Shown here: in pieces, positions 20,532-34,055 of the stretch
Layout: every line of letters starts with the position of its first letter
How positions within the stretch are numbered: position 1 is the first letter of the stretch
Assembly (NCBI GenBank): GCA_030700225.1
Contig: JAUYJT010000056.1
Span: 663 to 64,662, forward strand
Direction of reading: 5' to 3'
DNA from: Candidatus Nanopelagicales bacterium
GTDB taxonomy: Bacteria > Actinomycetota > Actinomycetes > S36-B12 > GCA-2699445
DNA: 64,000 bases
Made by a program: the position numbers and the translations under genes
The notes under the pieces: generated by a model
Told to the model about the DNA's origin: nothing
Database searches by the model: none
Seen by the model: the letters and a program-made list of their open reading frames with translations, nothing else

Positions 20532-21131
20532 GTGTACCAGGAAGTCTGGCAACAGCGATACTCCGAGCCCGGGCGCGTCTGGTCCCGGACGCCGAACCGG
20601 TGGCTCATCGACCTCGCCAACACGATGCGTCCAGGATCCGCGCTCGACCTGGCCTGCGGCGAAGGCGCGGATGCGATCTGGCTGGCACTCAACGGCTGGC
20701 AGGTGACCGCTGTGGACTTCGCCCCGGCCGCTATCGAAAGGGCAGCCGCTACGGCAGCGGAGGCGGGCGTCGGTGATCGGATGACCTGGGTTTCGGCAGA
20801 CGTTGACTCCTGGGAGCCCGGCCGCACGTTCGATCTAGTCAGCGTTCAGTTCCTGCACAGCCCCGCTGAGTGCAGGCGCCGCATCCACCGCAAGGCGTGG
20901 CAGGCGACAGCTCGGGCGCTCATCGTCGTCGGTCACGATCCCCGGAACGAGGCCGAGGGTCATTGCGGGCCATCCGATCCTGCGTTGCTCTACGACGCGG
21001 CGGACGTGCTCGCGAGCTTGGGCCTGTCGGAGTCCAGCCCGGAAGTCAAGGTAGCGGAATGCCGCGTCCGGAGCCCCGGGGATCCAGAGCAGATCGCGTT
21101 CGACAGCGTCGTTGTCGTGCGCCGGCTTTGA
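20532..21131 (+). CDS. Class I SAM-dependent methyltransferase
   Basis: SAM-binding motif ALDLACGEGADAIWLA. GTG start uncertain. Confidence 0.7.
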   Translation: MYQEVWQQRYSEPGRVWSRTPNRWLIDLANTMRPGSALDLACGEGADAIWLALNGWQVTAVDFAPAAIERAAATAAEAGVGDRMTWVSADVDSWEPGRTFDLVSVQFLHSPAECRRRIHRKAWQATARALIVVGHDPRNEAEGHCGPSDPALLYDAADVLASLGLSESSPEVKVAECRVRSPGDPEQIAFDSVVVVRRL

Positions 21132-21148
21132 GGATCGACGCCCGCTCA

Positions 21149-21312
21149 AACGTTGAAGCGGAACGATCGCGTGGGGTTTCGGCTGTCGTTGGTCACCGCT
21201 GGGTGATGCCGGAGAACATGGCTTGACCTGCGGAAACGCGTTCACGGGAGCTCGGGCGTCGTCGACGATCGTCGGTCTCGGCTGGACTTCTTGCGGACTA
21301 TTTGCGGACCGC
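21149..21312 (+). repeat. Direct repeat R1: ychF-tail mimic plus ~150-bp arm
   Basis: On the minus strand 21146-21163 reads TTC CGC TTC AAC GTT TGA (FRFNV-stop), the same as the ychF end. The rest aligns by eye along its length with 22995-23156 and ends in TCGGCTGGACTTCTTGCGGACTATTTGCGGACCGC. Confidence 0.8.
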
Positions 21313-21432
21313 AGGATGTCCGGAGCCCCTTCCGCATCTGGTCGAACTCGGCCGCCATGCGTCGACCTCAGAGCCCGAATCTGCGGGCAAACACTCGTAG
21401 CCGGGGCGACAGGGGATCCGCATCGCGACGAT

Positions 21433-21930
21433 TCACAGCTGCGCGCCGTCGAACCTCTCGAAGAACCACCCCGCCTGGTCCGGGACGATCTCCGCCAACT
21501 CGTCGGAGACGTCAAGGTCGTACGCGGCAGCGATCTCACCCACCTGGACGCCAACGAGGGCCCGGAGGCGACCAAGAGCCATTGAGAGCGGATCTGTTCC
21601 CATCGGCCGATAGTGGCGGTCCCAGTCGTCGCCTGCGGAACCCACCTGGTCCATGAACTCGCGGAAGAGACGCTGCAGCAGCTGAACCCGTTGAATCATG
21701 TCCGGGCCAATCTCTGGGTTGTCGAGGTGCACGCCCAGCTGCTTGCGTACGTGATCCGCCGACTGCACGCAATGCTCCTCGATCTCCATCGAGAAGTCCT
21801 TCCAAAGCATGCGTCGGTCGGCCAGCAGGTTGAGCGCCCGTCGCGCAATCTCACGGTCGTCGTCCTTCCGCTCCCATTGCGCTCCGCCGAAGGGTCCAAC
21901 CGATCCGCCGGTGACTCGATATCTGGTCAC
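21433..21930 (-). CDS. Hypothetical protein, second gene of the Ymh-like operon
   Basis: 165 aa from GTG 21930, which overlaps the upstream TGA as GTGA. Predicted helical and acidic; no family recognised. Confidence 0.6.
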   Translation of the reverse strand: MTRYRVTGGSVGPFGGAQWERKDDDREIARRALNLLADRRMLWKDFSMEIEEHCVQSADHVRKQLGVHLDNPEIGPDMIQRVQLLQRLFREFMDQVGSAGDDWDRHYRPMGTDPLSMALGRLRALVGVQVGEIAAAYDLDVSDELAEIVPDQAGWFFERFDGAQL

Positions 21931-22718
21931 AAGCTGACTTCCTCGACGTCGGCCTGGTCTACCCATCGAGCCAACAGGCTGAACGCGGCCAGCTGCTCAA
22001 GAGCCAGTTGCTCCTCGCCACCCGCGCTCTCCTGTGGCTTGTGCATACCGGGGTTCCGAATCGCGGTGTAGAGCCCGTCCGCGAAAGCGCGGGCTCCCCG
22101 ATGGAGATTCTGGTAGGTCTTGCCGCCGTCATCCTCCGCCAGGCGAAGACGAGGTGCTCCTTCCTTAGGCTCGTCAAGCGAGAACGCCTCGTTGAACAAC
22201 GCCGTCTCCGACACGTCCATCCGCCCCAACTTGGCCTGCGTCTCCGCATTGATCCGGATCGCCGCCTGCATGACTGCCTGGTGGCAGTGGCCGGTGTTCC
22301 AGTACGACCTTCCGTTCTCCCACGACCACGGGTGGAGATTGGCAGCGTCCATGTCAGGTGCGTTGTCGCCCAACTTCTCAGCCAACTCCCCCTGACGCTG
22401 GAGCGCAGCCTTGGCACGGGAGGCCTGGTCTCGGAGCCAGTCGAAATCCTCGTCCTTCTTCGGACGCTCGCGCGACCAACCGGGAAGCACGCGGTCGAGA
22501 ATCTGCTCCACAACATGCGCGCGTTGCGACGCCTCGGTTGCCGGGCCACGCATGACGGTTCCGAAGTAGGCGATGCCCGGTCCCATGTCAGGGACGACCT
22601 GTGCCGTCACGCCCAGGAACGCGTCGATCTCACTGATTGCCCACTCGGGATCCAACTTCGCCACGGAGACATCTTGCCGCGATGCGCCGACCGAACGAGT
22701 GTCGGAGGCGCGTGTCAC
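21927..22718 (-). CDS. Protein with a C-terminal TIGR02391/Hypoth_Ymh-like domain
   Basis: C-terminal ~130 aa (LHPWSWENGRSYWNTGHCHQAVMQAAIRINAE ... LHRGARAFADGLYTAIRNPGMH ... EQLAAFSLLARWVD) fit the Ymh pattern as I remember it. N-terminal ~115 aa unassigned. Start uncertain (GTG 22718 or 22664). Confidence 0.65.
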   Translation of the reverse strand: MTRASDTRSVGASRQDVSVAKLDPEWAISEIDAFLGVTAQVVPDMGPGIAYFGTVMRGPATEASQRAHVVEQILDRVLPGWSRERPKKDEDFDWLRDQASRAKAALQRQGELAEKLGDNAPDMDAANLHPWSWENGRSYWNTGHCHQAVMQAAIRINAETQAKLGRMDVSETALFNEAFSLDEPKEGAPRLRLAEDDGGKTYQNLHRGARAFADGLYTAIRNPGMHKPQESAGGEEQLALEQLAAFSLLARWVDQADVEEVSL

Positions 22719-22727
22719 GCTCTCTGC

Positions 22728-22973
22728 ATGAGTAACCGTCGCAAGCCGAAGCGCCGCAACCCCGACCCGGCCTCACGCCGCGCCGAGGCGGAAGCTCTTG
22801 TCGACAAGATCCTTCATGACACGCCGGAAGGTCGAGTAGACCCGGCAATCTCAGAGAACCTGCGGCAACATCTTGCGCGGAACCCCGGCCAGCCCGACCG
22901 CGCTCTGCTCAATCACTTCAAGGACCAGATTCCCGACTTCGACGCGGCGTTCCCGGAGGACCTGGAGAAGTAG
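22728..22973 (+). CDS. Small hypothetical protein with a basic N-terminus (81 aa)
   Basis: ATG-initiated ORF MSNRRKPKRRNPDPASRR..., divergent from the Ymh-like gene. A weak hairpin follows at 22977-22994. No homology recognised. Confidence 0.3.
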   Translation: MSNRRKPKRRNPDPASRRAEAEALVDKILHDTPEGRVDPAISENLRQHLARNPGQPDRALLNHFKDQIPDFDAAFPEDLEK

Positions 22974-22994
22974 CAGGGCGGGGCTCTCACGCCC

Positions 22995-23156
22995 CATTGA
23001 AACGGAACGACCACGCGGGATTTGGCCGTTGGTGGTCATCCTGGGTCGATGCCGAAGAGTGCCGCTTGTCCCGCAGCAACGCACTCTCCGGTCCGTTGAG
23101 CGTCGTTGGCGCCCTTCAGGCTCGGCTGGACTTCTCGCGGACTGCTTGCGGACCGC
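22995..23156 (+). repeat. Direct repeat R2: degenerate ychF-tail mimic plus ~150-bp arm
   Basis: Minus-strand 22987-23007 reads FRFNGA-stop. The arm aligns with R1 and ends in TCGGCTGGACTTCTCGCGGACTGCTTGCGGACCGC. Confidence 0.8.
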
Positions 23157-23162
23157 TGGCAA

Positions 23163-23942
23163 TCAGTCATCGGCTTCCAACTCAAGGATGGCGTTGGCGA
23201 CCTCGGACGGGAAGAGCGTCGACCAGATGATCTCGCCCGAGCCAGGGTTCATCTCAGCGAGTGGCGACGGTTCGGGCTGCCAGTCCTCGGGTGTCACACC
23301 CGGGACACAGTCGAGGAGCAGCGCGAAAATCTGCGGATCGGGAACTCCCTCGGCGATGATCGCGAGGTAGGCCTCATGGCCGTTCTCTGCTCGCACAAGA
23401 GCCTTGATCCGATGGCTGCGGAACTCGGCGACGGCGAGGTGGCCGTTCTTCAAGGACATCGAGACAAGGCGGATGACCATCCGCTTCATCTCACGCCGCC
23501 AAGCAACGGCCTGTTCCGCTGCGAGGCGCTTCCAGTCCCAATCGGCCGGAAGAAGGTGATCTGAGGAGACGGTCTTCCCCGTCGTGCACTCTCGCTGCAG
23601 GGTGGCGTAGAAATCGCGCTGAGGGCTGTCCGCTTGGCGTCGACCAGCCGCTCCGATCCACCACGCCCCTCGGCTCGGGCGCACCCAGTCCGGGAGTTCC
23701 TCGCCGCGAAGCTCTGTGACGGCGGCGCGATGGTCACTGGTCTTGACCTTGAACCAGACGCGGTCGGCGAGCGCAACGACGCGCTCTGCGCCACCGGCAT
23801 CCCGCTGCTCTGGAACGCTCTGAGCGTTAGCCACGACCGGGTGATCGATCTCTTCCAACCGGATCCCGAGGTCCGGCAGACCAGCCGCAAGGTCACCGAG
23901 GCAGCGCTTCGTCGGACGCACGCCGATCGGTTCCGAGACCAT
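23163..23942 (-). CDS. Hypothetical 259-aa protein downstream of an RHH gene (candidate toxin/effector)
   Basis: Clean ORF 47 nt downstream of the RHH gene. The segment RVWFKVKTSDHRAAV...AWWIGAAGRRQADSPQRDFY loosely resembles the RelE/ParE beta-sheet pattern. C-terminal ~140 aa unassigned. Confidence 0.6.
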   Translation of the reverse strand: MVSEPIGVRPTKRCLGDLAAGLPDLGIRLEEIDHPVVANAQSVPEQRDAGGAERVVALADRVWFKVKTSDHRAAVTELRGEELPDWVRPSRGAWWIGAAGRRQADSPQRDFYATLQRECTTGKTVSSDHLLPADWDWKRLAAEQAVAWRREMKRMVIRLVSMSLKNGHLAVAEFRSHRIKALVRAENGHEAYLAIIAEGVPDPQIFALLLDCVPGVTPEDWQPEPSPLAEMNPGSGEIIWSTLFPSEVANAILELEADD

Positions 23943-23989
23943 GGCGCGAATCTAGCGGCCAGGTCCGACGGTCAGCGGGCCGTCATGGG

Positions 23990-24250
23990 CTACTTCGGCA
24001 GCCCGCCGAGGTCATCGAGCTCTTCGGCGCTGAGGCCGGTCATAAGCGACACAGCAGCAGCTTCGGTGCCTTTGAGCTGACCGAGCGCAGCCTTGACGCC
24101 AGCGTTGATCTCATCGCGGTGTGCGTCGATGTACTCGCGCACGGCGGCATCGACGATGTCCTTCTTCGAGCGGGACATGAAGTGAGCTGCGTGCGACACA
24201 AGCTCGTCAGTCGCGGCGTCGACCTTGATCGGCGCAGTAGCGGTAGCCAT
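23990..24250 (-). CDS. Ribbon-helix-helix (CopG/ParD-like) DNA-binding protein, antitoxin-like
   Basis: 86 aa from ATG 24250, preceded by AAGGAGGG. The N-terminus PIKVDAATDELVSHAAHFMSRSKKDIVDAAVREYI fits the beta-alpha-alpha RHH pattern. Confidence 0.65.
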   Translation of the reverse strand: MATATAPIKVDAATDELVSHAAHFMSRSKKDIVDAAVREYIDAHRDEINAGVKAALGQLKGTEAAAVSLMTGLSAEELDDLGGLPK

Positions 24251-24269
24251 AGCGCTGCCCTCCTTCTCG

Positions 24270-24283
24270 GGTACCAAAGTACC
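24270..24283. promoter_or_regulatory. Palindrome GGTACCAAAGTACC upstream of the RHH gene (candidate operator)
   Basis: Perfect 5+5 inverted repeat with a 4-nt spacer, 20-33 nt upstream of the RHH start on the minus strand. Confidence 0.35.
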
Positions 24284-24313
24284 AGTATCTACCGTCATGG
24301 CAAATCCGCGTGG

Positions 24314-25381
24314 ATGGTTATGCGTCCGGCCGCACGTCGCCGATCCGCCTGTGGGCGCCAGTGCACGCCGATAACCTCAGAGGCACCATGGGTTACCGGG
24401 GACGACGACGCCAACCGCCTTGCCGCCCAAGCGCGCGCCCGCGTGCTCATCGACCGGCAGCTCGCCGAGGCGGGCTGGTCGGCGCAGGACCTTAAGTACG
24501 TCGTCCTGTTCCGCCCGATCGGCTCGATGGTCGAGTTCAAGCAGATCGTCGGGCGAGGGTCACGTCTCTACCCCGAGAACGACAAGTACTCCTTCGAGAT
24601 CGTGGACTACGTCGGCGCTTCGGTCCTTTTCTCCGATCCAGGCTTCGACGGTGAGCCGGTGCGCATACGGACCGAGCGCATCGACGAGTCCGGCGAGATC
24701 GTCGAAGACGAACTCGGGGACGTTGCCCCCGAGATGCCGTCGCTTGGCGAACCCGAGCCCCCCTTCGACCGAACCCAGTCCGAAGGAGAGCTCGAACAGC
24801 CGTCGGCGAGGAAGCATTACGTCGACGGCACAGAGGTCACTGTGACTGCCGAGGCGTACTACGTCGCTGACACGAGTACCGGCGCTCTCCGCCTCGTGGA
24901 ATACACGGACTACCTGGCCGGCCAGGTGCGCGTGCTGTGTCCGACCATCGATGACCTTCGCGCACGCTGGGCCGATCCTCAGCTACGTGCGGTCTTGGAG
25001 GAGGGCCTCGCCTCGCGCGGCGTGTCCATCGAAGAGATGTCGAGGCGCCTCGAACTTGCGCCCGACACGGACCCCTTCGACGTCCTCGCACACGCCGCCT
25101 GGAACGTTCCTCAACGGACGAGGGCGGAACGCGCTCGGCTGGTGCGCGAAGACCACGCGAGCGACCTCAAGGCGCTGGTGCCGACCGCGCGCGAGATCAT
25201 CTCCGCCCTCCTCGACCGCTACGAGGAGTACGGCGTCGAGGAGATGACCCACATCTACGCCTTCCAGGTGCCGCCGCTGAGCAACTTCGGCTCACCCGTC
25301 GAAGCGGCACAACACTTCGGCGGCGCTGAAGGCTGGCGCCAAGCCGTCAGCGAGCTCCAAGGTTGGCTGTACTCAGCGTGA
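24314..25381 (+). pseudogene. hsdR: Type I restriction enzyme R subunit remnant (in-frame internal deletion)
   Basis: HsdR-like N-terminal motif ARARVLIDRQLAEAGW is joined directly to helicase motif VI (FKQIVGRGSRL) and an EcoEI_R_C-like C-terminus (DPFDVLAHAAWNVPQRTRAERA). Nuclease and DEAD-box motifs I-V are absent. Confidence 0.7.
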
Positions 25382-25435
25382 GTTTTATTTTAGCGACGGC
25401 CGACTGCATAGAACTAAAGTCTAGATTGAGTTCGA

Positions 25436-26047
25436 ATGCGCTATGCTTGGCCCATGGCCGGCACTCGACAGGATCTGCGGCTGGCGCTCCAACGCCTTGC
25501 CTTCAGCCAGGCTGGCTACTTCACCGCCGCCGAGGCTCTCGACCTCGGGTACAGCTATCAGGCACAGAAGTACCACGCCGATAGTGGCAACTGGCTGCGA
25601 GTCGACCGTGGTCTGTTCCGACTTCCCGACTGGCCCTCCGCTCCCGAGGACCAGTGGGTGCGCTGGACCCTATGGAGCGAGGGCCGTGGCGTCGTGTCCC
25701 ACGACTCGGCCGCGCTCGTCCACGACCTCGGCGAGCTCGATCCCCGCCACGTGCACCTGTCCGTTCCCCCCGGATTCCGGGCCGTGGATCCGGCGGTGGT
25801 CACGCATGTGTACGATCTGCCTGCCGCGGACGTTCTCGACCGCGGCGCCTGGCGGGTGACTACGCCGCTGCGCACACTGCTCGATCTCGCGGGTGGCGAC
25901 ACCACGCAGGAGCAACTCGAGGCTGCGGTCGCCGCCACGCTGGAGCGGGGCCTGACGACCGCGCGCCGGATCCGCACTCGCTCGGACGAGGCCGGAGACC
26001 GGGCGGCGCTCCGCATCGAGCGGGCGCTCAAGGCAACGACGACATGA
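25436..26047 (+). CDS. Type IV toxin-antitoxin system AbiEi family antitoxin
   Basis: 203 aa with an AbiEi-like wHTH N-terminus (LAFSQAGYFTAAEALDLGYS) and an ATGA overlap with the downstream nucleotidyltransferase. Preceded by the only low-GC patch in this region (25381-25435). Confidence 0.75.
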   Translation: MRYAWPMAGTRQDLRLALQRLAFSQAGYFTAAEALDLGYSYQAQKYHADSGNWLRVDRGLFRLPDWPSAPEDQWVRWTLWSEGRGVVSHDSAALVHDLGELDPRHVHLSVPPGFRAVDPAVVTHVYDLPAADVLDRGAWRVTTPLRTLLDLAGGDTTQEQLEAAVAATLERGLTTARRIRTRSDEAGDRAALRIERALKATTT

Positions 26048-26898
26048 CCGACAACCAGGCGCTCAGAACCAGCATCGAGCAACGGCTCGCCAATCTGGCG
26101 GCCGAGCGACAAGTCTCGCTCGATCGGTTGCGCCGCCACTTCGTTTTCCAGCGGATCCTGGTTCGACTGTCCGCGGACGACAACTGGGTACTCAAAGGCG
26201 GCTTCGCCCTCGAGGTCAGGCTCGGCCTCGACGCCCGGGCGACCAAGGATCTGGATCTGGCCATGCTGGAGGACCTCGACGGCGTCGAGGCGCAGGATCG
26301 TCTGCTCGATGCTCTCGACGTCGACGCCGGTGACGGATTGACCTTCCAGGTGTCCGCACCGCGAGCGATCGCCTCGGACGATGCCGGAAACCCCGGCTGG
26401 AGGTTCACCGTCACATCGGTCCTAGGCGGCAAGGTCTTCGCATCGCTGCGCCTCGACGTCGTCGCGCGGAGCGCGGAGATCGTCGGCGCCATCGGCACCA
26501 TCGAGGTACGCCCGCCGATCCTCGCGGAACTCCTGAGCAGCACCGCGATGCCGACGGTGGACATCGCCCAGCACGCCGCGGAGAAGTTCCACGCGATGGC
26601 CCGGACGTACGCCGGAGATCGACCCAGCAGCCGCGTCAAGGACTTGGTCGACGTCGTACTCCTCGTGGAAGCGGGGCTGCTGCCGAATCCGGACCTGCCC
26701 GGTCGGCTTCAAACGGTCTGGCAGGTGCGGGACGGCGTGCCGCCACCGGCACAGCTCCCCGATTTCCCGGCGTCGTGGCCCAGCGACTTCGCCGCAATGG
26801 CCGCTGAACTCGATCTGGCCGTCGACTACCCCACCGCCCGCTCCACCGCCGAACGACTCTTCGCCGAGGCGGTCACCACCGAGGAGAACCAATCGTGA
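26044..26898 (+). CDS. AbiEii/AbiGii nucleotidyltransferase toxin (DUF1814)
   Basis: VLKGGFALEVRLGLDARATKDLDL nucleotidyltransferase motif. 284 aa. Its stop overlaps the hsdM GTG as GTGA. Confidence 0.8.
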   Translation: MTDNQALRTSIEQRLANLAAERQVSLDRLRRHFVFQRILVRLSADDNWVLKGGFALEVRLGLDARATKDLDLAMLEDLDGVEAQDRLLDALDVDAGDGLTFQVSAPRAIASDDAGNPGWRFTVTSVLGGKVFASLRLDVVARSAEIVGAIGTIEVRPPILAELLSSTAMPTVDIAQHAAEKFHAMARTYAGDRPSSRVKDLVDVVLLVEAGLLPNPDLPGRLQTVWQVRDGVPPPAQLPDFPASWPSDFAAMAAELDLAVDYPTARSTAERLFAEAVTTEENQS

Positions 26899-28391
26899 GC
26901 CGTGCCGCCAAGAGCGTTGCCCAGACCCCGCAGGCGCGTCTCGCGTCGGTCATCAAGACCAGTCGGGACATCATGCGCAAGGACGCCGGCCTCAACGGCG
27001 ACCTGGACCGGCTTCCTCAACTGTCCTGGCTCCTCTTCCTCAAGGCCTTCGACGACCTCGAGCGGAACAGGATGATCGTCGACCCCAGCTACCGGCCAGC
27101 ACTGCCGGAGGAGCTCCGATGGAGCGTGTGGGCGGCAGATCCGACCAAGCGCAAGCAGGGTGACGCCCTCATCAACTGGGTCAACGGAACCCTGCTCCCG
27201 GGGCTTGGCCGACTGAAGGGATCCGGCCGGGCGGGCGACCCTCGCACCACGCTCGCCACGGTCTTCAAAGAGACCAACAACCGAATGCTGTCCGGCTACC
27301 TGCTCGGTGACCTGATCGACCAGATCGACAAGGTGCACTTCACGTCGGCCGACGACATCCACACCATGGCCCATCTGTACGAGTCGATGCTGCGCGAAAT
27401 GCGGGACGCAGCCGGAGACTCGGGCGAGTTCTACACACCCCGGCCGGTGATCCGGCTCATGGTCGAGCAGGTCAATCCGCGCTTGGGCGAGACGGTGCTG
27501 GACCCGGCTGTCGGCACAGGCGGATTCCTGGTCGAGGCATACGAGCACCTCCGCGCCCAGGCGCGGTCCGCGACCGAGATCGCGACGGCGAAACGCTCGA
27601 TCAGCGGCTTCGAGAAGAAGCCACTCCCCTACCTGCTCTGCCAGATGAACCTGCTCCTGCACGAAGTGGAACAGCCCAACGTCACCCGCATGAACTCGCT
27701 GACCTTCTCGTTGGCTGACCAGCGCAAGGCCGGCGTCGACGTCGTTCTGACCAACCCGCCGTTCGGGGGTGAGGAGGAGAGCAGCAGCCTGGGGAACTTC
27801 CCTGCCGACTCGCGGACGGCAGAGACCGCCTGGCTGTTTCTCCAGGTGGTGATGGCGCGCCTGGAGAAGAGGAAGGGCCGCTGCGGGATCGTCGTCCCCA
27901 ACGGGGTCCTCTTCGCCAACGAGGGCGCGCCGGCACGGATCAAGAAGAAGCTGCTCACCGACTTCAACCTGCACTCTGTGGTGCGGCTGCCCAACGGCGT
28001 CTTCGCTCCGTACACCCTCATCCCCTCCAACCTGCTCTTCTTCGAATACGGCGGGCCAACGAAGGACATCTGGTTCTACGAGCAGCCCCTGCCGGAGGGG
28101 CGGAAGAACTACACGAAGACAAGACCGCTGCGTTTCGAGGAATTCGCCGATGTCCAGGCATGGTGGGGTGGCACGGATCGAGTCGGCCGAGTCGAGAACG
28201 AGCACGCGTGGAAGGTCGACGCCGCCACACTCGCGGAGGACGGCTACAACCTGGATCTCCGCAACCCGCATCGTGCCGACGATCTGACGCATCGCTCGCC
28301 CGAGGAACTCGTCAAGGAACTGATTGCCGTGGAGGAGCAGATCCTCGCAGCCCTTCAGGACCTCCAGTCCAACCTCGGGAACGACGCCTGA
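26895..28391 (+). CDS. hsdM: Type I restriction-modification system methyltransferase subunit
   Basis: N6-adenine MTase motif IV NPPFGG, SAM motif VLDPAVGTGGFL, and an HsdM N-terminal domain. Confidence 0.9.
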   Translation: MSRAAKSVAQTPQARLASVIKTSRDIMRKDAGLNGDLDRLPQLSWLLFLKAFDDLERNRMIVDPSYRPALPEELRWSVWAADPTKRKQGDALINWVNGTLLPGLGRLKGSGRAGDPRTTLATVFKETNNRMLSGYLLGDLIDQIDKVHFTSADDIHTMAHLYESMLREMRDAAGDSGEFYTPRPVIRLMVEQVNPRLGETVLDPAVGTGGFLVEAYEHLRAQARSATEIATAKRSISGFEKKPLPYLLCQMNLLLHEVEQPNVTRMNSLTFSLADQRKAGVDVVLTNPPFGGEEESSSLGNFPADSRTAETAWLFLQVVMARLEKRKGRCGIVVPNGVLFANEGAPARIKKKLLTDFNLHSVVRLPNGVFAPYTLIPSNLLFFEYGGPTKDIWFYEQPLPEGRKNYTKTRPLRFEEFADVQAWWGGTDRVGRVENEHAWKVDAATLAEDGYNLDLRNPHRADDLTHRSPEELVKELIAVEEQILAALQDLQSNLGNDA

Positions 28392-29512
28392 TGGCGGTGC
28401 GGCAGGTGCGAGTAGGGGACATCCTCTCGCTTCACCGCGTTCCCGTTCAGATTGACGAGGCAGATAGCTACAGGCAAATCGGCCTCTACTCCTGGGGCAA
28501 AGGGTTCATCCATCGACCTTCGTGTCTCGGCTTCGAACTCAGCAAGCTTCGTTACTTTCAGATCCCAGCCGGCGCTCTCGTTCTCAGCAGCATCCAGGCA
28601 TGGGAGGCGGCCATCGCCGTATCGACCAACGCTGAAGCTGAATTCATCGGGTCGAACCGGTTCCTTAGCTATGTACCGCGCACCGACGACGTGGACGTGC
28701 GCTACTTACTGCACTACTTCCTCTCCGAACCTGGTCTCCACCAGATCAAGCAGGCTTCGCCGGGAACGCAGGTACGAAACCGAACGCTGGGGCAGCAACT
28801 CTTCGAGCGCCTAGCAATTCCCCTGCCCGACGTCACCGAGCAGCAGTGCATTGCCGCACGCCTCGACCGAATCGTGGCAATCTCGACGTCGTTCGGCGAA
28901 CCTCCGACCGCGGCCCTTCGAGACAACTTCCTCGATAGGGTCTCGCAGAGATCACGGATCGGGCACATCATCACGCTTGCTCGACACCCTGTGAGCGTCA
29001 AAGCGAGCGAGGCCTACCCGAACCTCGGCATCCTCAACCGGGCCCGTGGTGTGTTCGCCAAGCCGCCGATGCTGGGTTTAGGGACGAAGTACTCGACCTT
29101 GTATCGGGTGCGCGCCGGACAGTTGATCTATTCGAAACTGTTCGGCCGGGAGGGATCGCTCGCCATCGTGCCCGAGTGGGCGGACGGGTGGTTCGTCTCC
29201 AGCGAGTTCCCCACGTTCGACGTGAACACCGACGCAGTAGATCTCGACTACTTCGGCCAGGTGTTGCGCTGGCGCGGTCTCGCGGAACAGCTGGCCGCCG
29301 CGACGTCAGGGATGGGTCAGCGGCGACAGCGCGTGCAGATCGACCAGTTCGAGGCGCTCGAGGTCCCGTTGCCAGACCTCCCGACCCAACGCCACATCGG
29401 CGCCGATCTCCTCCGACTCGCCGCAGTCGAGGGCCTGGTGGCCCACAGGGCAACGCTGTCGGCCGGCCTACTTCCTGCCGCTCGGAATCAAGCGTTCGCC
29501 AGCCTCACCTGA
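28391..29512 (+). CDS. hsdS: Type I restriction-modification system specificity subunit
   Basis: ATG overlaps the hsdM TGA (TGATG). 373 aa with two target-recognition-like halves separated by a helical spacer (LPLPDVTEQQCIAARLDRI and LPLPDLPTQRHIGADLLRL). Confidence 0.8.
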   Translation: MAVRQVRVGDILSLHRVPVQIDEADSYRQIGLYSWGKGFIHRPSCLGFELSKLRYFQIPAGALVLSSIQAWEAAIAVSTNAEAEFIGSNRFLSYVPRTDDVDVRYLLHYFLSEPGLHQIKQASPGTQVRNRTLGQQLFERLAIPLPDVTEQQCIAARLDRIVAISTSFGEPPTAALRDNFLDRVSQRSRIGHIITLARHPVSVKASEAYPNLGILNRARGVFAKPPMLGLGTKYSTLYRVRAGQLIYSKLFGREGSLAIVPEWADGWFVSSEFPTFDVNTDAVDLDYFGQVLRWRGLAEQLAAATSGMGQRRQRVQIDQFEALEVPLPDLPTQRHIGADLLRLAAVEGLVAHRATLSAGLLPAARNQAFASLT

Positions 29513-30161
29513 CGCTGCGCCATGAACTTCCCGCGATTACTACGTGGTCAAGGAACCGGAGTCCGGCCGCATCGGCGGCCCGGCCTACGGCGCCAGTGGC
29601 CTCACGGTCGTAGATGCTTGGGGTCGGATCTCCAGAAGGATGATTGTGCGCGAGGGCGAACGCTCGACCGTCGTACCGCAGCACGGCGTGCAGCACCTCT
29701 CGGACAGGCAACGGACTCGAGTCCAGGCCTCCAGTTGCAACGGGTACAAGGCGAAGCACGCGGTTGGCGGCGTCGGCCACCAGGACCACGACCTTCTCCC
29801 GCCGTTCGCGGGCGAGCACCGGGGCGACCAGCTCAGCGATCGCGGCTGCGGAGTCCACGACACGGTTGGCCGGTGAAGCTGTAGCCCGAGCCGCTAGTTC
29901 GAATGCGGCTGTTAGGCGCACTGCCTCTGCGGGGCCGATGCTTGATGACCGCATCAGCTCCTCAGGAAACGCGGCTGCCAGGCCACTCAGTCCTCCGCAC
30001 TCGTCGATCAGTTTCCGACCCACCGCAACCTCGTCGCATCCCTGTGGTGCTACGGCGGCTACCAGGGCAACAAGCTCGGCGTCGCTGAGCGCGCCAGGTC
30101 CCAGACTCAGGAGACGCTCGCGGGGCTGGTCGCCGGCGAACAGCCGCGACGTGATCGACAT
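29505..30161 (-). CDS. radC: RadC-like JAB/MPN domain protein
   Basis: JAMM motif LAHNHPSGDPTPS and an N-terminal HhH-like region. Converges on hsdS with an 8-nt overlap. Confidence 0.8.
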   Translation of the reverse strand: MSITSRLFAGDQPRERLLSLGPGALSDAELVALVAAVAPQGCDEVAVGRKLIDECGGLSGLAAAFPEELMRSSSIGPAEAVRLTAAFELAARATASPANRVVDSAAAIAELVAPVLARERREKVVVLVADAANRVLRLVPVATGGLDSSPLPVREVLHAVLRYDGRAFALAHNHPSGDPTPSIYDREATGAVGRAADAAGLRFLDHVVIAGSSWRSVR

Positions 30162-30231
30162 CCCGCAACGCTAGGTCGCAGAGCCGACGAGCACTATCGC
30201 GCCCGAGACACCTGTGGAAAGGCTAGCTTCG

Positions 30232-30570
30232 TCAGCCCTTGAAGATGCAGGTCGGATCGTTGTCGTACTCGGCCAGCAGCCGCTCGATCGGCTGATCCGG
30301 CTCGAGAAGGTCGTAGGCATGGGCTCGGGAGTTCCGATCGAACCAGTACAGGGTCCAGCCCTTCGTTTGCTCGTCGTACTTCATCCGAGCCTGCGGAGTG
30401 TCGGTCCACTCCGGGCCTAGCGCCGGATTCCACGGCGGCCGATGCTCGACGATCGTCACGGTGCGACCGCGCACGCGGTGCTCCACACGCACCTGTTCCC
30501 GCATCTCGGGCGGGACCTGCGTCTCGCAGAACCGCCGGATCCGCGCGAGATCGGTCTCTGGGACGGCCAT
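30232..30570 (-). CDS. DUF3024-like protein
   Basis: 112 aa from the internal ATG (MAVPETDLARIRRFCE...VTIVEHRPPW...GWTLYWFDRNSRAH), a pattern I associate with DUF3024. Confidence 0.6.
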   Translation of the reverse strand: MAVPETDLARIRRFCETQVPPEMREQVRVEHRVRGRTVTIVEHRPPWNPALGPEWTDTPQARMKYDEQTKGWTLYWFDRNSRAHAYDLLEPDQPIERLLAEYDNDPTCIFKG

Positions 30571-30784
30571 GGGCTCAGTATCTGATGAGTATCGCCGGGG
30601 CCGCCATCCGCGTCCCACCCTTCCCGCTCTCGTGCCCCTCACTGACTACCGCCGACTCCTCACCGTCGCGAGAATCTCTCCCACGTCGCACCCGCCTTCG
30701 CCCTCAACCCCTTTGAGTGGCACCCATCAGACAGAACCCGCGAACCTTGCCGATTGGTCGGCCCTGGCTGCAAAGATCGATGTC

Positions 30785-31696
30785 ATGAGCGGCAAGCACA
30801 TCGAGCTCTTCCTCGTCGACGGCACCCCCGGCGGCCTGACGACTGCGGAGATCCTGAACTGGACGGGGCAGGTCTTCAGTGCTCCGCGATCGGAGATGAG
30901 CGCCCTCGTCCGCCGCGCCGAGCTCGCGGGCACGTGCGTGTACCTACTGCTCGGTCCCGACGAGCAAGGCGGCAGCCGTTGCTACATCGGCGAGACCGAC
31001 GACTTCAAGGCACGCCTTCGATACCACGATGCGAACAAGGAGTTCTGGCGCAAGGCCGTGGTGATCACCTCGAAGGACGCGAACCTGACGAAGGCACACG
31101 GCCGCTATCTGGAGTCCCGCCTGATCGCACTCGCTCTCCAGGTCGGCCGCGTCGTCCTCGACAATGGGACGACTCCTCCGCCACAGGCACTGCCCGAGGC
31201 GCACGCCTCCGACATGGACTACTTCATCGACCAGCTGCAGATTGTCCTGCCGGCCCTCGGAGTCGATGCCATCCGCGGTCGGGAGACCGTCGCAGTGACG
31301 GCAGCGCGGCAGGAACAGCTGGTGTCGCCGGTCTTTCGTCTCGTGAACATGAAGCTCGGCGTCGCTGCAACGGCTCAGCAGATCGACGGGGAGTTCACGA
31401 TGCTGGCCGGTTCTACCGTCGTGGGTGACTGGCAGGGCGTGGGGAAGGCCGACAGCACGATCAAGGCGTACGACTCGTACCGAACCCAACACCTCAAGCT
31501 CATCGCCGACGGCTCGATCATCGTCGAGAACGGTGTCGGTCGGGTCGCGAAGGACATCGTCTTCGGCTCCCCATCGACCGCTGGCGCGATCGCTCAGGGG
31601 CGCTCCTGCAACGGCCGGACCTCCTGGGCGGCGGAGGACGGCAGCACCTTCGGCTCCTGGGAGAGCCGCGGTGTCGGGACAACGGAGGTCTCCTGA
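30785..31696 (+). CDS. GIY-YIG nuclease domain protein with a DUF4357-like C-terminus
   Basis: GIY-YIG elements CVYLLLG, CYIGETDDFKARLRYH and ESRLI. The C-terminus FGSPSTAGAIAQGRSCNGRTSW is typical of DUF4357. Start ATG 30785; the upstream ORF extension is antisense to DUF3024. Confidence 0.75.
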   Translation: MSGKHIELFLVDGTPGGLTTAEILNWTGQVFSAPRSEMSALVRRAELAGTCVYLLLGPDEQGGSRCYIGETDDFKARLRYHDANKEFWRKAVVITSKDANLTKAHGRYLESRLIALALQVGRVVLDNGTTPPPQALPEAHASDMDYFIDQLQIVLPALGVDAIRGRETVAVTAARQEQLVSPVFRLVNMKLGVAATAQQIDGEFTMLAGSTVVGDWQGVGKADSTIKAYDSYRTQHLKLIADGSIIVENGVGRVAKDIVFGSPSTAGAIAQGRSCNGRTSWAAEDGSTFGSWESRGVGTTEVS

Positions 31697-31698
31697 CC

Positions 31699-31842
31699 AT
31701 GGCTGGCATCCAGCACCTGTCCATGCGCGCGCCATGGCGCGACCGACCGTGGGACCAGTTCCTCTGCGACGACCCGCTCGGCAACTCCTCATGCACTCTC
31801 CTCGCGGCGATCGGCAAACGTCGTGACGACGACACTGGTGAG
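31699..31842 (+). pseudogene. N-terminal stub (~48 codons) of a larger gene coupled to the GIY-YIG gene
   Basis: ATG lies 2 nt after the GIY-YIG stop. MAGIQHLSMRAPWRDRPWDQFLCDDPLGNSSCTLLAAIGKRRDDD looks like a genuine conserved N-terminus, but after ~31842 the frame runs antisense through another gene. Confidence 0.45.
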
Positions 31843-31989
31843 GAGCGGCAATTGATTCAGGCGCTCCTCGGCCTGCCGGAGGAACGACGCCGCACGCGCG
31901 ACGTCTGCGGGCACGACATCGAGACGTCCCGCCTCGACCAGCGCGAGCACGGTCGCCTGCTGGACGCGGGTGAGCGGGGTCAGCGCCAC
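31789..31989 (-). pseudogene. Truncated partner gene of the wHTH-nucleotidyltransferase (possible HEPN-type toxin remnant)
   Basis: GTG 31989 overlaps the upstream stop by 10 nt. About 49 plausible codons (VALTPLTRVQQATVLALVEAGRLDV...RLNQLPLLTS) are followed by junk read-through to the stop at 31789. Confidence 0.4.
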
Positions 31990-32564
31990 GGCAGCTCCCC
32001 GATCACGGCGACCGCCGGGCCGCTGCGCACGTTGTCCAGGAAGCCGGAGGGAGCGGCGAACTCCGCATCTGTGAGGATCGTCGGGTTCACGGGCCGGTGC
32101 ACCGCAGCCTCGATCCGGGCGCACGCCTCGTAGACCGCGTCCACGTCGGGCTCACCGAGCACCATGACGTCGATGTCGTGCGGTGCCGGACCGGCATCCC
32201 CGAGCATCCGCGCGGCGAAGGAACCGTAGAGGAACGCCGACTCGATCCCGTCGATGCGAGCAAGCTCCTCGGCCAGGATCACCACCGGACCAGTAGCGAC
32301 CGTGAGGATCTCGCGCAACGGCTCCACCAGCGGGCTCTCGCCGTTGGCGCGGATCAGCCTCGTGCGGCCCACCTGCCGCTCGCTCAGGATGCCAGCGTCC
32401 ACCAGGCGCGCGACCTCGCGGTGCGCGGTCGGGTATGCCAGGCCCGCCCGTTTGGCCAGATCGGTGACGCTGAGCTCCTCGCCGGTCAGCAACAAGGTGG
32501 AGAGCAGGCGCGCTTGGCCGTCCGACCGGAAGATCGGAGCGAGGAGCGGTGCCTCAGTTCTCAT
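31980..32564 (-). CDS. Winged-helix (ArsR/MarR-like) plus nucleotidyltransferase-domain protein (MNT-type antitoxin-like)
   Basis: HTH region LSVTDLAKRAGLAYPTAHREVARLVDAGIL and NTase motif LYGSFAARMLGDAGPAPHDIDVMVL. ATG 32564 chosen. Confidence 0.7.
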   Translation of the reverse strand: MRTEAPLLAPIFRSDGQARLLSTLLLTGEELSVTDLAKRAGLAYPTAHREVARLVDAGILSERQVGRTRLIRANGESPLVEPLREILTVATGPVVILAEELARIDGIESAFLYGSFAARMLGDAGPAPHDIDVMVLGEPDVDAVYEACARIEAAVHRPVNPTILTDAEFAAPSGFLDNVRSGPAVAVIGELPWR

Positions 32565-32573
32565 ATAACTGAG
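32553..32573. promoter_or_regulatory. 7-bp inverted repeat CTCAGTT-N7-AACTGAG spanning the start codon of the wHTH-NTase gene
   Basis: Perfect inverted repeat in a low-GC patch. Candidate autoregulatory operator or 5-prime hairpin. Confidence 0.35.
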
Positions 32574-32975
32574 ATTATCCTCCACTATATCGATAGTCAA
32601 CGCCGGGGAATAGTCAAGACCTGTGGATTGGCGTGTCTCATGCTGCGGTGATCCCGTCGGGGCGCTCGATGAGTTTGAACGCCATCGCCACGCCATCTGC
32701 CCTCGAGCCTGGACCTTTGGTGACTTTGGTCCGCAGCCGGACGGTCGCGAACACGGACTCCATCGTTCATCGTTATCTGGAGGCGTCCAGCAGGGGGGTC
32801 CTTGGAGGTCTGATGCTCGTTCAGCGGGTGGCGGCACTACGAGCCGTGCTTGAAGCCGAAATCGCGCAGAATGTCGGACCCGTAGTACACAATGAGGAGG
32901 TCAACGCAGCCTAAGCGATCAACGGGCCGCTACCGAAGTTCCACGGAACTCGGGACATCCTCGAAACGCGCCGAT

Positions 32976-34055
32976 TCACACGTTGAAGCGGAACTCCACG
33001 ACGTCCCCTTCGGCCATGACGTAGTCCTTGCCCTCGATATGCAACTGGCCGCGCGCCCTGGCCTCGGCCAGGGACCCGGCCGCGACCAACTCATCGAAGG
33101 ACACGACCTCGGCCTTGATGAACCCGCGCTGGAAATCAGTGTGAATGACGCCGGCGGCCTCCGGTGCCGTGGCGCCCCTGCGAATCGTCCAAGCGCGCGA
33201 TTCCTTCGGGCCAGCTGTCAGGAAAGTCTGCAATCCGAGCGCGTCGAAAGCGACACGCGCCAAAGCCGCGATGCCTGACTCCTCCTGCCCGACCGACCGC
33301 AGAAGCTCAAGGGCTTCCTCTTCGGGCAGCTCGGCCAGCTCCGACTCGACCTTCGCGTCCAGAATCACGGCCTCCGCCGGGGCCACCAACGCACGTGCCT
33401 GGGCCGCGAAGTTCGGGTCCGCCAGCTCCTGCTCATCCGCGTTGATCACGTAGAGGAAGGGCTTGGCCGTCAACAAGAACAGCTCCCGGATCGCGGCGGC
33501 GTCGACGCCGGATCCGAACAGGGTCCGCCCAGAGTCCAGGATCTCCTGCGCCCGCAGGGCTGCGGATAGGGCCGCACCGCGCGACTTGTCGTTTCGAGCC
33601 TCCTTCTCCAACCTGGGGATCGCCTTCTCGAGGGTCTGCAGGTCCGCCAGGATCAGCTCAGTGTTGATCGTGTCCATGTCATCGGCGGGCGATATCCGAC
33701 CCTCCAGATGGATCACATCTGGGTCCTCGAACGCTCGCAGTACCTGGCAGATCGCGTCGGACTCGCGGATGTGAGCCAGGAACCTATTCCCCAACCCCTT
33801 GCCCTCGCTGGCACCGCGCACGATCCCCGCGATGTCGACGAAGGTGACCGCCGCCGGTACGACCCTCCGCGAGGCGAAAACCTCCGCCAGAACGTCCAGC
33901 CTGGGATCCGGCACCCCAACGACGCCAGTGTTCGGCTCGATCGTCGCGAAGGGGTAGTTGGCGGACATGGCGGCCGCTGAGTTGCGAGTCAGGGCGTTCA
34001 GCAGCGTCGACTTTCCAACGTTAGGCAAGCCGACGATTCCGACAGTGAGTCCCAC
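32976..34055 (-). CDS. ychF: Redox-regulated ATPase YchF
   Basis: P-loop GIVGLPNVGKST, and a C-terminal IHTDFQRGFIKAEV TGS-type domain. Ends in EFRFNV-stop. Confidence 0.9.
   Translation of the reverse strand: MGLTVGIVGLPNVGKSTLLNALTRNSAAAMSANYPFATIEPNTGVVGVPDPRLDVLAEVFASRRVVPAAVTFVDIAGIVRGASEGKGLGNRFLAHIRESDAICQVLRAFEDPDVIHLEGRISPADDMDTINTELILADLQTLEKAIPRLEKEARNDKSRGAALSAALRAQEILDSGRTLFGSGVDAAAIRELFLLTAKPFLYVINADEQELADPNFAAQARALVAPAEAVILDAKVESELAELPEEEALELLRSVGQEESGIAALARVAFDALGLQTFLTAGPKESRAWTIRRGATAPEAAGVIHTDFQRGFIKAEVVSFDELVAAGSLAEARARGQLHIEGKDYVMAEGDVVEFRFNV

Follow-up and report, generated by a model that had tools for sequence, protein, structure and literature searches.

Two related sequences, R1 (21149-21312) and R2 (22995-23156), lie on the plus strand of a 64,000-nucleotide stretch of a Candidatus Nanopelagicales contig (the window), in a run of genes that ends at the 3′ end of ychF (32976-34055, minus strand; Pfam YchF-GTPase_C and MMR_HSR1). 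We asked what these two repeats are and how the genes behind them came to lie next to ychF. We consider it likely that R1 and R2 are scars of site-specific integration junctions, each a copy of the ychF tail (the core) followed by a cargo-side attachment-site (att) arm of ~145 nt, left by elements that were stacked one behind another and then decayed.

The first-pass annotation had described two direct repeats of ~163 bp with near-identical ends. A global alignment of R1 and R2 had 166 columns, of which 122 (73%) were identical, and contained only three small gaps. It scored ~15 standard deviations above 1,000 dinucleotide shuffles, and likewise above 1,000 random 162-mers from the window. The 36-nt block that ends R1 recurred in R2 with 3 mismatches, whereas no shuffle (0) matched it. 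A profile built from R1 and R2 found exactly two copies in the 64-kb window using nhmmer, namely R1 and R2 themselves, which are in direct orientation, 1.85 kb apart. R1 DNA had no match in phage and plasmid collections. We concluded that the repeat, including its near-identical ends, is as described and is not due to chance (z≈15 relative to shuffles).

Both repeats begin at a copy of the ychF 3′ end. Core copy 1, TCAAACGTTGAAGCGGAAC (21146-21164, plus strand), is a displaced ychF 3′ end whose minus strand reads FRFNV-stop, which is also how the ychF product ends. Core copy 3, the target site, is the last 19 nt of ychF itself, TCACACGTTGAAGCGGAAC (32976-32994). These two copies match at 18 of 19 positions, and the single difference is synonymous on the coding strand. 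In R2, the core is reduced to TTGAAACGGAAC (22997-23008), which matches the ychF tail at 11 of 12 positions; the first 7 nt of the core have been lost. Hence, the ychF-tail mimic that was said to open both repeats is clear for R1 and weaker for R2. Direct repeats of the target-gene 3′ end therefore bound the island at 21146-21164 and 32976-32994, with a degenerate third copy at 22997-23008, and the order core, arm, cargo 1, core, arm, cargo 2, core, ychF is as originally proposed. Left of core 1 we found no element motifs; the sequence there differed in every genome aligned, and similarity between genomes began only at the core. Left of the R2 core there was no integrase-side arm motif, only the stop codon of an 81-amino-acid (aa) open reading frame (ORF) and a hairpin.

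The arms differ in their state of preservation. R1, a cargo-side (P′-type) arm, carries TGACCTGCGGAAACGC at 21224 and three CGGAC units in 11-bp phase at 21284-21309. R2 keeps a GCGGAC pair (23137-23153), together with a degenerate TGACCTGCGG block. In other contigs, both core and motifs are intact in arms of this cassette type. Beside ychF, an integrase-side (P) arm (32838-32975, plus strand) has also degenerated, with only AAACGCGCCGAT left beside the core and no GCGGAC pair, where L112, L137, L148, L189, L053 and L054 (L-numbers denote collected loci and contigs) keep TTGCGGACTnnnTGCGGAC and TGACCTGCgcAAACGC. We concluded that R1 is the outer junction of the array and that R2 is a decayed inner junction. 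Beyond the end of R1, ~60 nt (21313-21373) are 78% conserved in L124 (363-421) and in L145, with different cargo next; this stretch may be left over from a gene that originally adjoined an R1-type arm.

We compared the locus with 80 ychF loci from species-representative genomes, retrieved by YchF protein alone. In 4 of the 80 (L054, L048, L053 and L023), an arm lay downstream of ychF and was oriented relative to it as in the window. The L054 arm is full length and 88% identical to R1, L048 has one full arm (82% to R1) and a partial second copy, the L053 copy is internally deleted, and that of L023 is partial. Metagenomes were scanned for the core followed by a gap of 112 to 138 nt and a GCGGAC pair, which returned 117 contigs. 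Eight of these 117 had two arms in direct orientation, 1.3 to 5.3 kb apart, and wherever a metagenome contig had both an arm and ychF, the side and strand of ychF agreed with those in the window. Immediately to the left of the searched pattern are 7 nt that the pattern does not constrain; among 91 distinct arms, 85 had Val followed by a stop codon there, with synonymous variation only (TGA, TAA or TAG as the stop codon, GTN as Val). We interpret these 7 nt as the footprint of a displaced ychF tail.

The first gene after the arm was on the opposite strand, its stop codon 3 to 120 nt from the arm end, and its identity was highly variable. HEPN (with MNT) was found 20 times, ParE 17 times, AbiEii 7 times, and a pair of 259-aa and 102-aa ORFs 6 times, including R2; DUF488 (4), PIN (3), DUF4411, a HigA-like antitoxin and others were rarer. 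Most cargos beside arms were toxin-antitoxin or defence genes. The alternative cargos that the first-pass annotation had advised looking for are thus present behind the arm and the ychF core in other genomes, and tandem arrays recur. In L054, the unit is 1.4 kb long, reads ychF, HTH-nucleotidyltransferase (HTH, helix-turn-helix), HEPN, arm, core, and has no integrase. We rejected this 1.4-kb, two-core arm-HEPN-MNT unit as a common form: no core lay 450 nt or less from the MNT start in any of 16 metagenome units (0/16), and L192 alone among them has ychF, ~490 nt away. In most cases, the HEPN-MNT module forms the left end of a larger element.

Arms are ~165 nt long with sharp ends, starting with the ychF-tail core and finishing with TTGCGGACCGCnGG. 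Pairwise identity among 92 distinct arms had a median of 68%, and conservation was concentrated in blocks: the core plus GA; TGACCTGCGGAAACGC; two to three CGTTGG/CGTCGG units with 10-bp spacing; and three CGGAC units with 11-bp spacing. The GCGGAC-containing end therefore does contain phased repeats of the kind expected of recombinase arm sites, as had been suggested. In a λ-type attP, the arms on either side of the core, P and P′, contain arm-type sites for the integrase as well as sites for accessory proteins. Repeated arm-type units likewise lie on both sides of the short ychF core, with three CGGAC units on the cargo side and, in relatives, a GCGGAC pair 45 to 80 nt from the core on the other. 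This pattern of conservation is the one expected of protein-binding DNA, like that of λ-type att arms, and the integrase is its presumed ligand.

An integrase family is associated with the same motifs. The distal motif of the arm was present in five viral contigs, among them L083, which encodes a tyrosine integrase as well as capsid proteins. In L083, three GCGGACT units in 11-bp phase lie on one side of the likely core, and two copies lie on the other side in the last integrase codons (ADSVRTG), so that repeats flank the likely attP on both sides. Homologues of the L083 integrase are located directly beside the ychF stop codon, convergent with ychF, in L036 (a more distant homologue), L052, L064, L009, L006, L057 and L008, and integrase remnants are located beside ychF in L032 and L029. 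Of these loci, L009 is from Modestobacter sp. VKM Ac-2977, L036 from Streptosporangium pseudovulgare JCM 3115 and L008, where the gene is partial, from Klenkia taihuensis. The 3′ ends of the ychF-adjacent integrases carry GCGGACTnnnTGCGGAC 45 to 60 nt from the ychF stop codon, with the GCGGACTnnnTGCGGAC pairs in the last integrase codons (ADSVRT). Integrase-side GCGGAC repeats in last integrase codons were located at 9718-9734 in L083, 11146-11162 in L036 and 11118-11134 in L009, and also at 11117-11133 in L053. Tyrosine integrases of the same family are encoded on the arm-bearing contigs L114, L186, L136, L153, L202 and L139; these are 54 to 66% identical to the ychF-adjacent integrases and up to 97% identical among themselves.

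Genes for an HTH_17 excisionase and a TrwC/AAA_30 relaxase adjoin the family integrases, and a TrwC/AAA_30 relaxase was found on 13 related loci. L202 is a tandem of two integrase-bearing elements, in the order excisionase, integrase, TGACCTGCGG, core, arm, cargo, relaxase, excisionase, integrase. Internal junctions, with an integrase-side arm, a core and a cargo-side arm in succession, were present in L105, L130 and L202. Most arrays that lack an integrase keep a GCGGAC pair, and often also TGACCTGCgcAAACGC, between the last gene and ychF; the stretch that is kept corresponds to the last ~30 nt of an integrase gene. The family integrases have an N-terminal extension of ~58 residues. The system thus resembles λ attP in having two or three phased direct repeats on each side of the core, an integrase with such an extension, and a small HTH excisionase gene nearby. 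In contrast to λ, the repeat sequences are unrelated, one set of repeats lies inside the last integrase codons, and integrase binding is a prediction. L114 (13607-13713) and L186 (8930-9130) are near-identical contigs with arm, HEPN, MNT, relaxase, excisionase and integrase; their similarity ends ~75 nt past the integrase stop codon, and no ychF core was found there.

Partial contigs were used to assemble the layout that an intact member would have: core, arm, toxin-antitoxin or defence cargo, TrwC-type relaxase, excisionase, tyrosine integrase, integrase-side arm, core, ychF. The integrase would recombine the ~19-nt core, re-creating the last ychF codons, and the phased repeats of the two arms (CGGAC every 11 bp, CGTTGG every 10 bp, and TGACCTGCGGAAACGC) would direct it. 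Successive integrations at the same core would produce a head-to-tail stack of elements, and later deletions would strip the integrase, the excisionase, the relaxase and some of the junctions. That the putative source elements are a family of integrative mobilizable elements (IMEs) of Actinomycetota is largely supported.

Several observations weigh against this explanation. Pfam, and tblastn with family representatives, detected no integrase, excisionase or relaxase in the window: the genes of 21146-32994 encode no Phage_integrase domain, three family integrases used as tblastn queries matched nothing in the whole window, and no TrwC homologue was present there. The window therefore lacks the integrase of its own that an integrative element should have and, on the relaxase search, the relaxase/oriT that an IME should have. 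No single contig joins arm, cargo, integrase, core and ychF, and L114 and L186 were rejected as complete elements, having an integrase with no recognisable ychF core after it. Pfam detected no arm-binding domain at the integrase N terminus. In the island, the right end of the first cassette, which follows R1, has no integrase-side arm, so there is no support for this cassette as an independently integrating unit. The metagenome scan pattern fixes the core and the GCGGAC pair, such that their conservation in the 117 contigs is partly built in. Lastly, the best YchF match among the species representatives is only 76% identical, which leaves the window organism with no close representative and is too distant for an empty-site or presence/absence comparison; an exact-sequence search with the window YchF matched no contig.

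The first-pass annotation attributed the layout to two elements with related attP arms that had integrated successively at one site. The att-type arms, and arms at the same site elsewhere, are consistent with successive integration; two clean elements are not what we see. The 11.8-kb island (21146-32994) is instead a mosaic in which the decayed remains of at least three or four elements have been joined by deletions, to judge from a chimeric hsdR, a truncated HEPN gene, the decayed R2 and the degenerate ychF-side arm. Its parts are R1 with a Ymh cassette; the decayed R2 with the 259-/102-aa pair; a block of type I restriction-modification, AbiE, RadC and PDC-S14 genes, joined to the preceding part via the chimeric hsdR; and a truncated HEPN-MNT pair next to ychF. 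The array is probably immobile now, and the order in which we place the integrations and deletions is a proposed one.

The first cassette consists of genes for a DUF6650 protein (21433-21966, minus strand; Pfam PF20355) and a TIGR02391/Hypoth_Ymh protein (21927-22718, minus strand; Pfam PF09509; likely true length, 243 aa), followed by the 81-aa ORF (22728-22973, plus strand), which is divergent from the Ymh gene, has no Pfam match and is followed by the hairpin GGGCGGGGCTCTCACGCCCC. The Ymh protein had weak PADLOC matches to Aga_HEPN and PD-Lambda-3_B. DUF6650 is a singleton among the first genes adjoining arms, and the DUF6650/Ymh cargo was not found beside any of ~126 other arms. Given this absence, and the right end described above, we do not retain the description of cargo 1 as a minimal mobilisable defence cassette. 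Relatives of the Ymh protein at 80 to 89% identity occur across Actinomycetota (Nocardioides, Arthrobacter, Kocuria, Microbacterium and other genera). In Arthrobacter koreensis, the Ymh gene is again behind ychF, in an island terminated by an exact core copy and without the R1/R2 arm type. The pair of Ymh gene and small ORF is conserved (79% nucleotide identity) in an unrelated mobile element with serine recombinases in L204, and in L203 the Ymh gene and a TrwC relaxase gene are ~2.7 kb apart, an HTH_17 gene lying farther downstream. From these contexts, we regard the Ymh gene as a travelling module.

The second arm is followed by the 259-aa ORF (23163-23942) and the 102-aa ORF (23990-24298), both on the minus strand. 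This pair recurs beside arms: it is found directly after the arm in L098, L102, L117, L148, L150 and L168, with 75 to 94% aa identity. Neither ORF could be assigned to a family, and the 102-aa ORF has faint antitoxin-like Pfam hints; the two could be an undescribed toxin-antitoxin or defence pair. In L148, an arm, the 259-aa ORF, the 102-aa ORF, an hsdR stub and an integrase-side arm all lie between the core and ychF. In the window, the next gene is a chimeric or internally deleted hsdR (24348-25381, plus strand), in which only the EcoEI_R_C domain was detected. Over its first ~55 codons, the window hsdR is similar to the hsdR located after the 102-aa ORF in L148, L150 and L168, and over its C-terminal ~300 codons (from 24485) to another hsdR type, that of L124, L130 and L145. 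The fusion point is near 24485-24511, and the helicase core is missing. We concluded that hsdR marks a fusion scar between two element remnants. HsdM and HsdS look intact, but with no helicase core in hsdR the type I system is probably unable to restrict.

AbiEi, AbiEii, HsdM, HsdS, RadC (minus strand) and a GIY-YIG/DUF4357 protein follow (25436-31696; Pfam and PADLOC); the last (30398-31696) is the candidate defence system PDC-S14 of PADLOC. The hsdR-AbiE-HsdMS-RadC-PDC-S14 block was also found on the arm-bearing contigs L124, L130 and L145, at 85 to 88% nucleotide identity. Between this block and ychF is a minus-strand remnant (31824-32600; PADLOC PDC-M05A/B) with an MNT-like HTH-nucleotidyltransferase gene (31980-32600) and the first 56 HEPN codons. 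Thus, HEPN is cut after codon 56, and the nucleotidyltransferase partner of PDC-M05 is intact. The MNT and truncated HEPN segment is 91% identical in nucleotide sequence to L054 and L053, compared with 72 to 80% for the ychF genes of those genomes, which indicates that this cassette was transferred horizontally. The base composition of the island does not set it apart from its surroundings.

We considered whether the whole composite was built in another genome and arrived once, by integration or by homologous recombination via ychF and the flank, with no accretion in this lineage. In favour of such an arrival, island blocks occur in the same order elsewhere (e.g., the block from hsdR to PDC-S14 in L130, at 87 to 88%), the internal scars indicate that the island aged as a unit, and the IME review states that transfer of a whole composite cannot be excluded (PMC5704250). 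However, the R1-Ymh-R2 junction was reproduced in no contig, and the one synonymous difference between the R1 core and the ychF core is expected if the outer junction retains an older host tail. The array would in any case have arisen by accretion somewhere, and the nature of R1 and R2 would be unaffected. We concluded that a single arrival is unlikely, and that stacked and decayed integration junctions remain the better explanation of the repeats.

The direct orientation of the two copies and their spacing of 1.85 kb would also suit a local duplication, in which R2 was copied from R1, or R1 from R2, by slippage or unequal crossing-over. However, R1 is closer to the arms of L054 (88%) and L048 (82%) than to R2 (73%), and the genes after R1 are unrelated to those after R2. 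Moreover, R2 and its cargo match five other contigs at 74 to 86%, with the homology beginning exactly at the R2 core (22997). Since R1 is nearer to arms of other genomes than to R2, we exclude local duplication for practical purposes and give it very little credence. R1 and R2 appear to be independent acquisitions, of which R2 is the decayed one.

A still less probable origin is a generic intergenic element unconnected with recombination, such as a repetitive extragenic palindrome (REP)-like sequence, a terminator or a small RNA gene. The position of the arm, 3 to 120 nt past the stop codons of convergent cargo genes, would fit a terminator or similar element. However, the 64-kb window holds only two copies, and the arm is fused to the ychF-tail core across the collected loci (the 117 metagenome contigs having been selected with the core). 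An Rfam search of the arm gave no match at an E value of ≤1, a terminator scan found no terminator-like site in R1 or R2, and RNAalifold with 60 arms found no conserved fold (consensus, −10.8 kcal/mol with one compensatory pair). A generic terminator or REP sequence, which the first-pass annotation had named as a refutation of its proposal, is thus not supported. From the direct phased repeats, together with the lack of a conserved fold, an Rfam match or a terminator, we concluded that the arms are att-derived sequences rather than REP sequences, RNA genes or terminators. Arrays of small, toxin-antitoxin-rich cassettes that each end in a conserved ~165-nt site do recall integrons, with the arm as an attC that folds as single-stranded DNA, but this is hardly credible given that the arm has no conserved hairpin from an imperfect palindrome, that its conservation is in direct, phased repeats, and that the associated recombinases are λ-type tyrosine integrases paired with an excisionase.

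Tandem accretion with decay from IME to cis-mobilizable element (CIME) is a known process; the ychF site is little described. In the IME model, elements integrate in the 3′ end of a gene, decay to CIMEs and accrete further elements (Guedon et al. 2017, PMC5704250), and ICESt1/CIME of Streptococcus thermophilus is an example of tandem accretion with CIME decay (PMC5704250). The ychF array shares with IME/CIME accretion the 3′-end target, a direct repeat of the gene end at each junction and head-to-tail stacking, as well as older elements that shed integrase and transfer genes and keep att-derived sequences and cargo (PMC5704250). Unlike ICESt1/CIME, the window has another host phylum, another target gene (ychF) and other arm sequences. 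Like a CIME, the island is devoid of integration and transfer genes. However, a CIME by definition keeps both att sites, attL and attR, with their arms, whereas the inner element of the window has lost one: cassette 1 has the R1 arm at its left only. For the island as a whole, the degenerate ychF-side arm counts against the same definition.

Dehalococcoides is reported to have tandem islands with short direct repeats of the ssrA 3′ end at the bounds of each; most are said to keep their own integrase, and their arms are reportedly not described as a conserved 165-nt module. Horizontally acquired islands of Dehalococcoides are site-specific for the 3′ end of single-copy ssrA and have variable cargo (McMurdie et al. 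2011, PMC3146451). They share with the window island variable cargo and site-specific insertion where a conserved gene ends, and the target differs in being an RNA gene (PMC3146451). ychF itself is an integration target of Actinomycetota pipolins with large serine recombinases (PMC11551731) and of a pneumococcal prophage (PMC6375853). In contrast, the ychF family described here has a tyrosine integrase and a TrwC relaxase, and no piPolB was seen. We found no description of this tyrosine-integrase/TrwC family or its arm in the open-access literature, and the family seems not to have been described previously for Actinomycetota and a ychF target.

Repeated site-specific integration and decay would explain an 11.8-kb defence island. 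The ychF-tail core together with a 165-nt arm with phased CGGAC repeats provides a search signature for Actinomycetota genomes and metagenomes, and the integrase and its arm sites are a candidate pair open to testing. Accretion of this kind is a well-known growth route of defence islands and not a new mechanism; because the process itself is textbook, the value of the analysis lies in annotation and comparison rather than in a new concept. We tentatively raise a further possibility, which we think doubtful, that the ychF 3′ end is a cassette platform in which short integrase-less units persist as substrates for integrases supplied in trans full elements. Each unit would have a core and a 165-nt arm, then one or two genes for toxin-antitoxin or defence functions, and finally the ~30-nt integrase stub, kept only for its predicted binding sites. 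If so, λ-type recombination would shuffle defence and addiction modules from genome to genome in an integron-like manner.

On the far side of the island, the host flank carries a gene for a SAM-dependent methyltransferase (20532-21131, plus strand; Methyltransf_25 and related Pfam families). The window contains no tRNA genes. In two of the viral contigs, L082 (~860-1033) and L084 (~230-396), phased GCGGACT units are 100 to 150 nt from sequence that resembles a tRNA 3′ end (GGTTCGAATCC, acceptor stem, CCA). ARAGORN identified no tRNA genes on the viral contigs, and the tRNA-like fragments of L082 and L084 were read by eye; their proximity to GCGGACT suggests that relatives of the integrase family may target tRNA genes. 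Units of 0.8 kb behind ychF, bounded by further ychF-tail copies, were found in L020 (11056-11892), L021 (11056-12717) and L001 (11056-11870). These belong to Streptomyces, Kitasatospora and the window's closest relative, carry YefM-YoeB or other small genes, and are without an R1/R2-type arm. The ychF tail thus appears to be a hotspot used by several element lineages.

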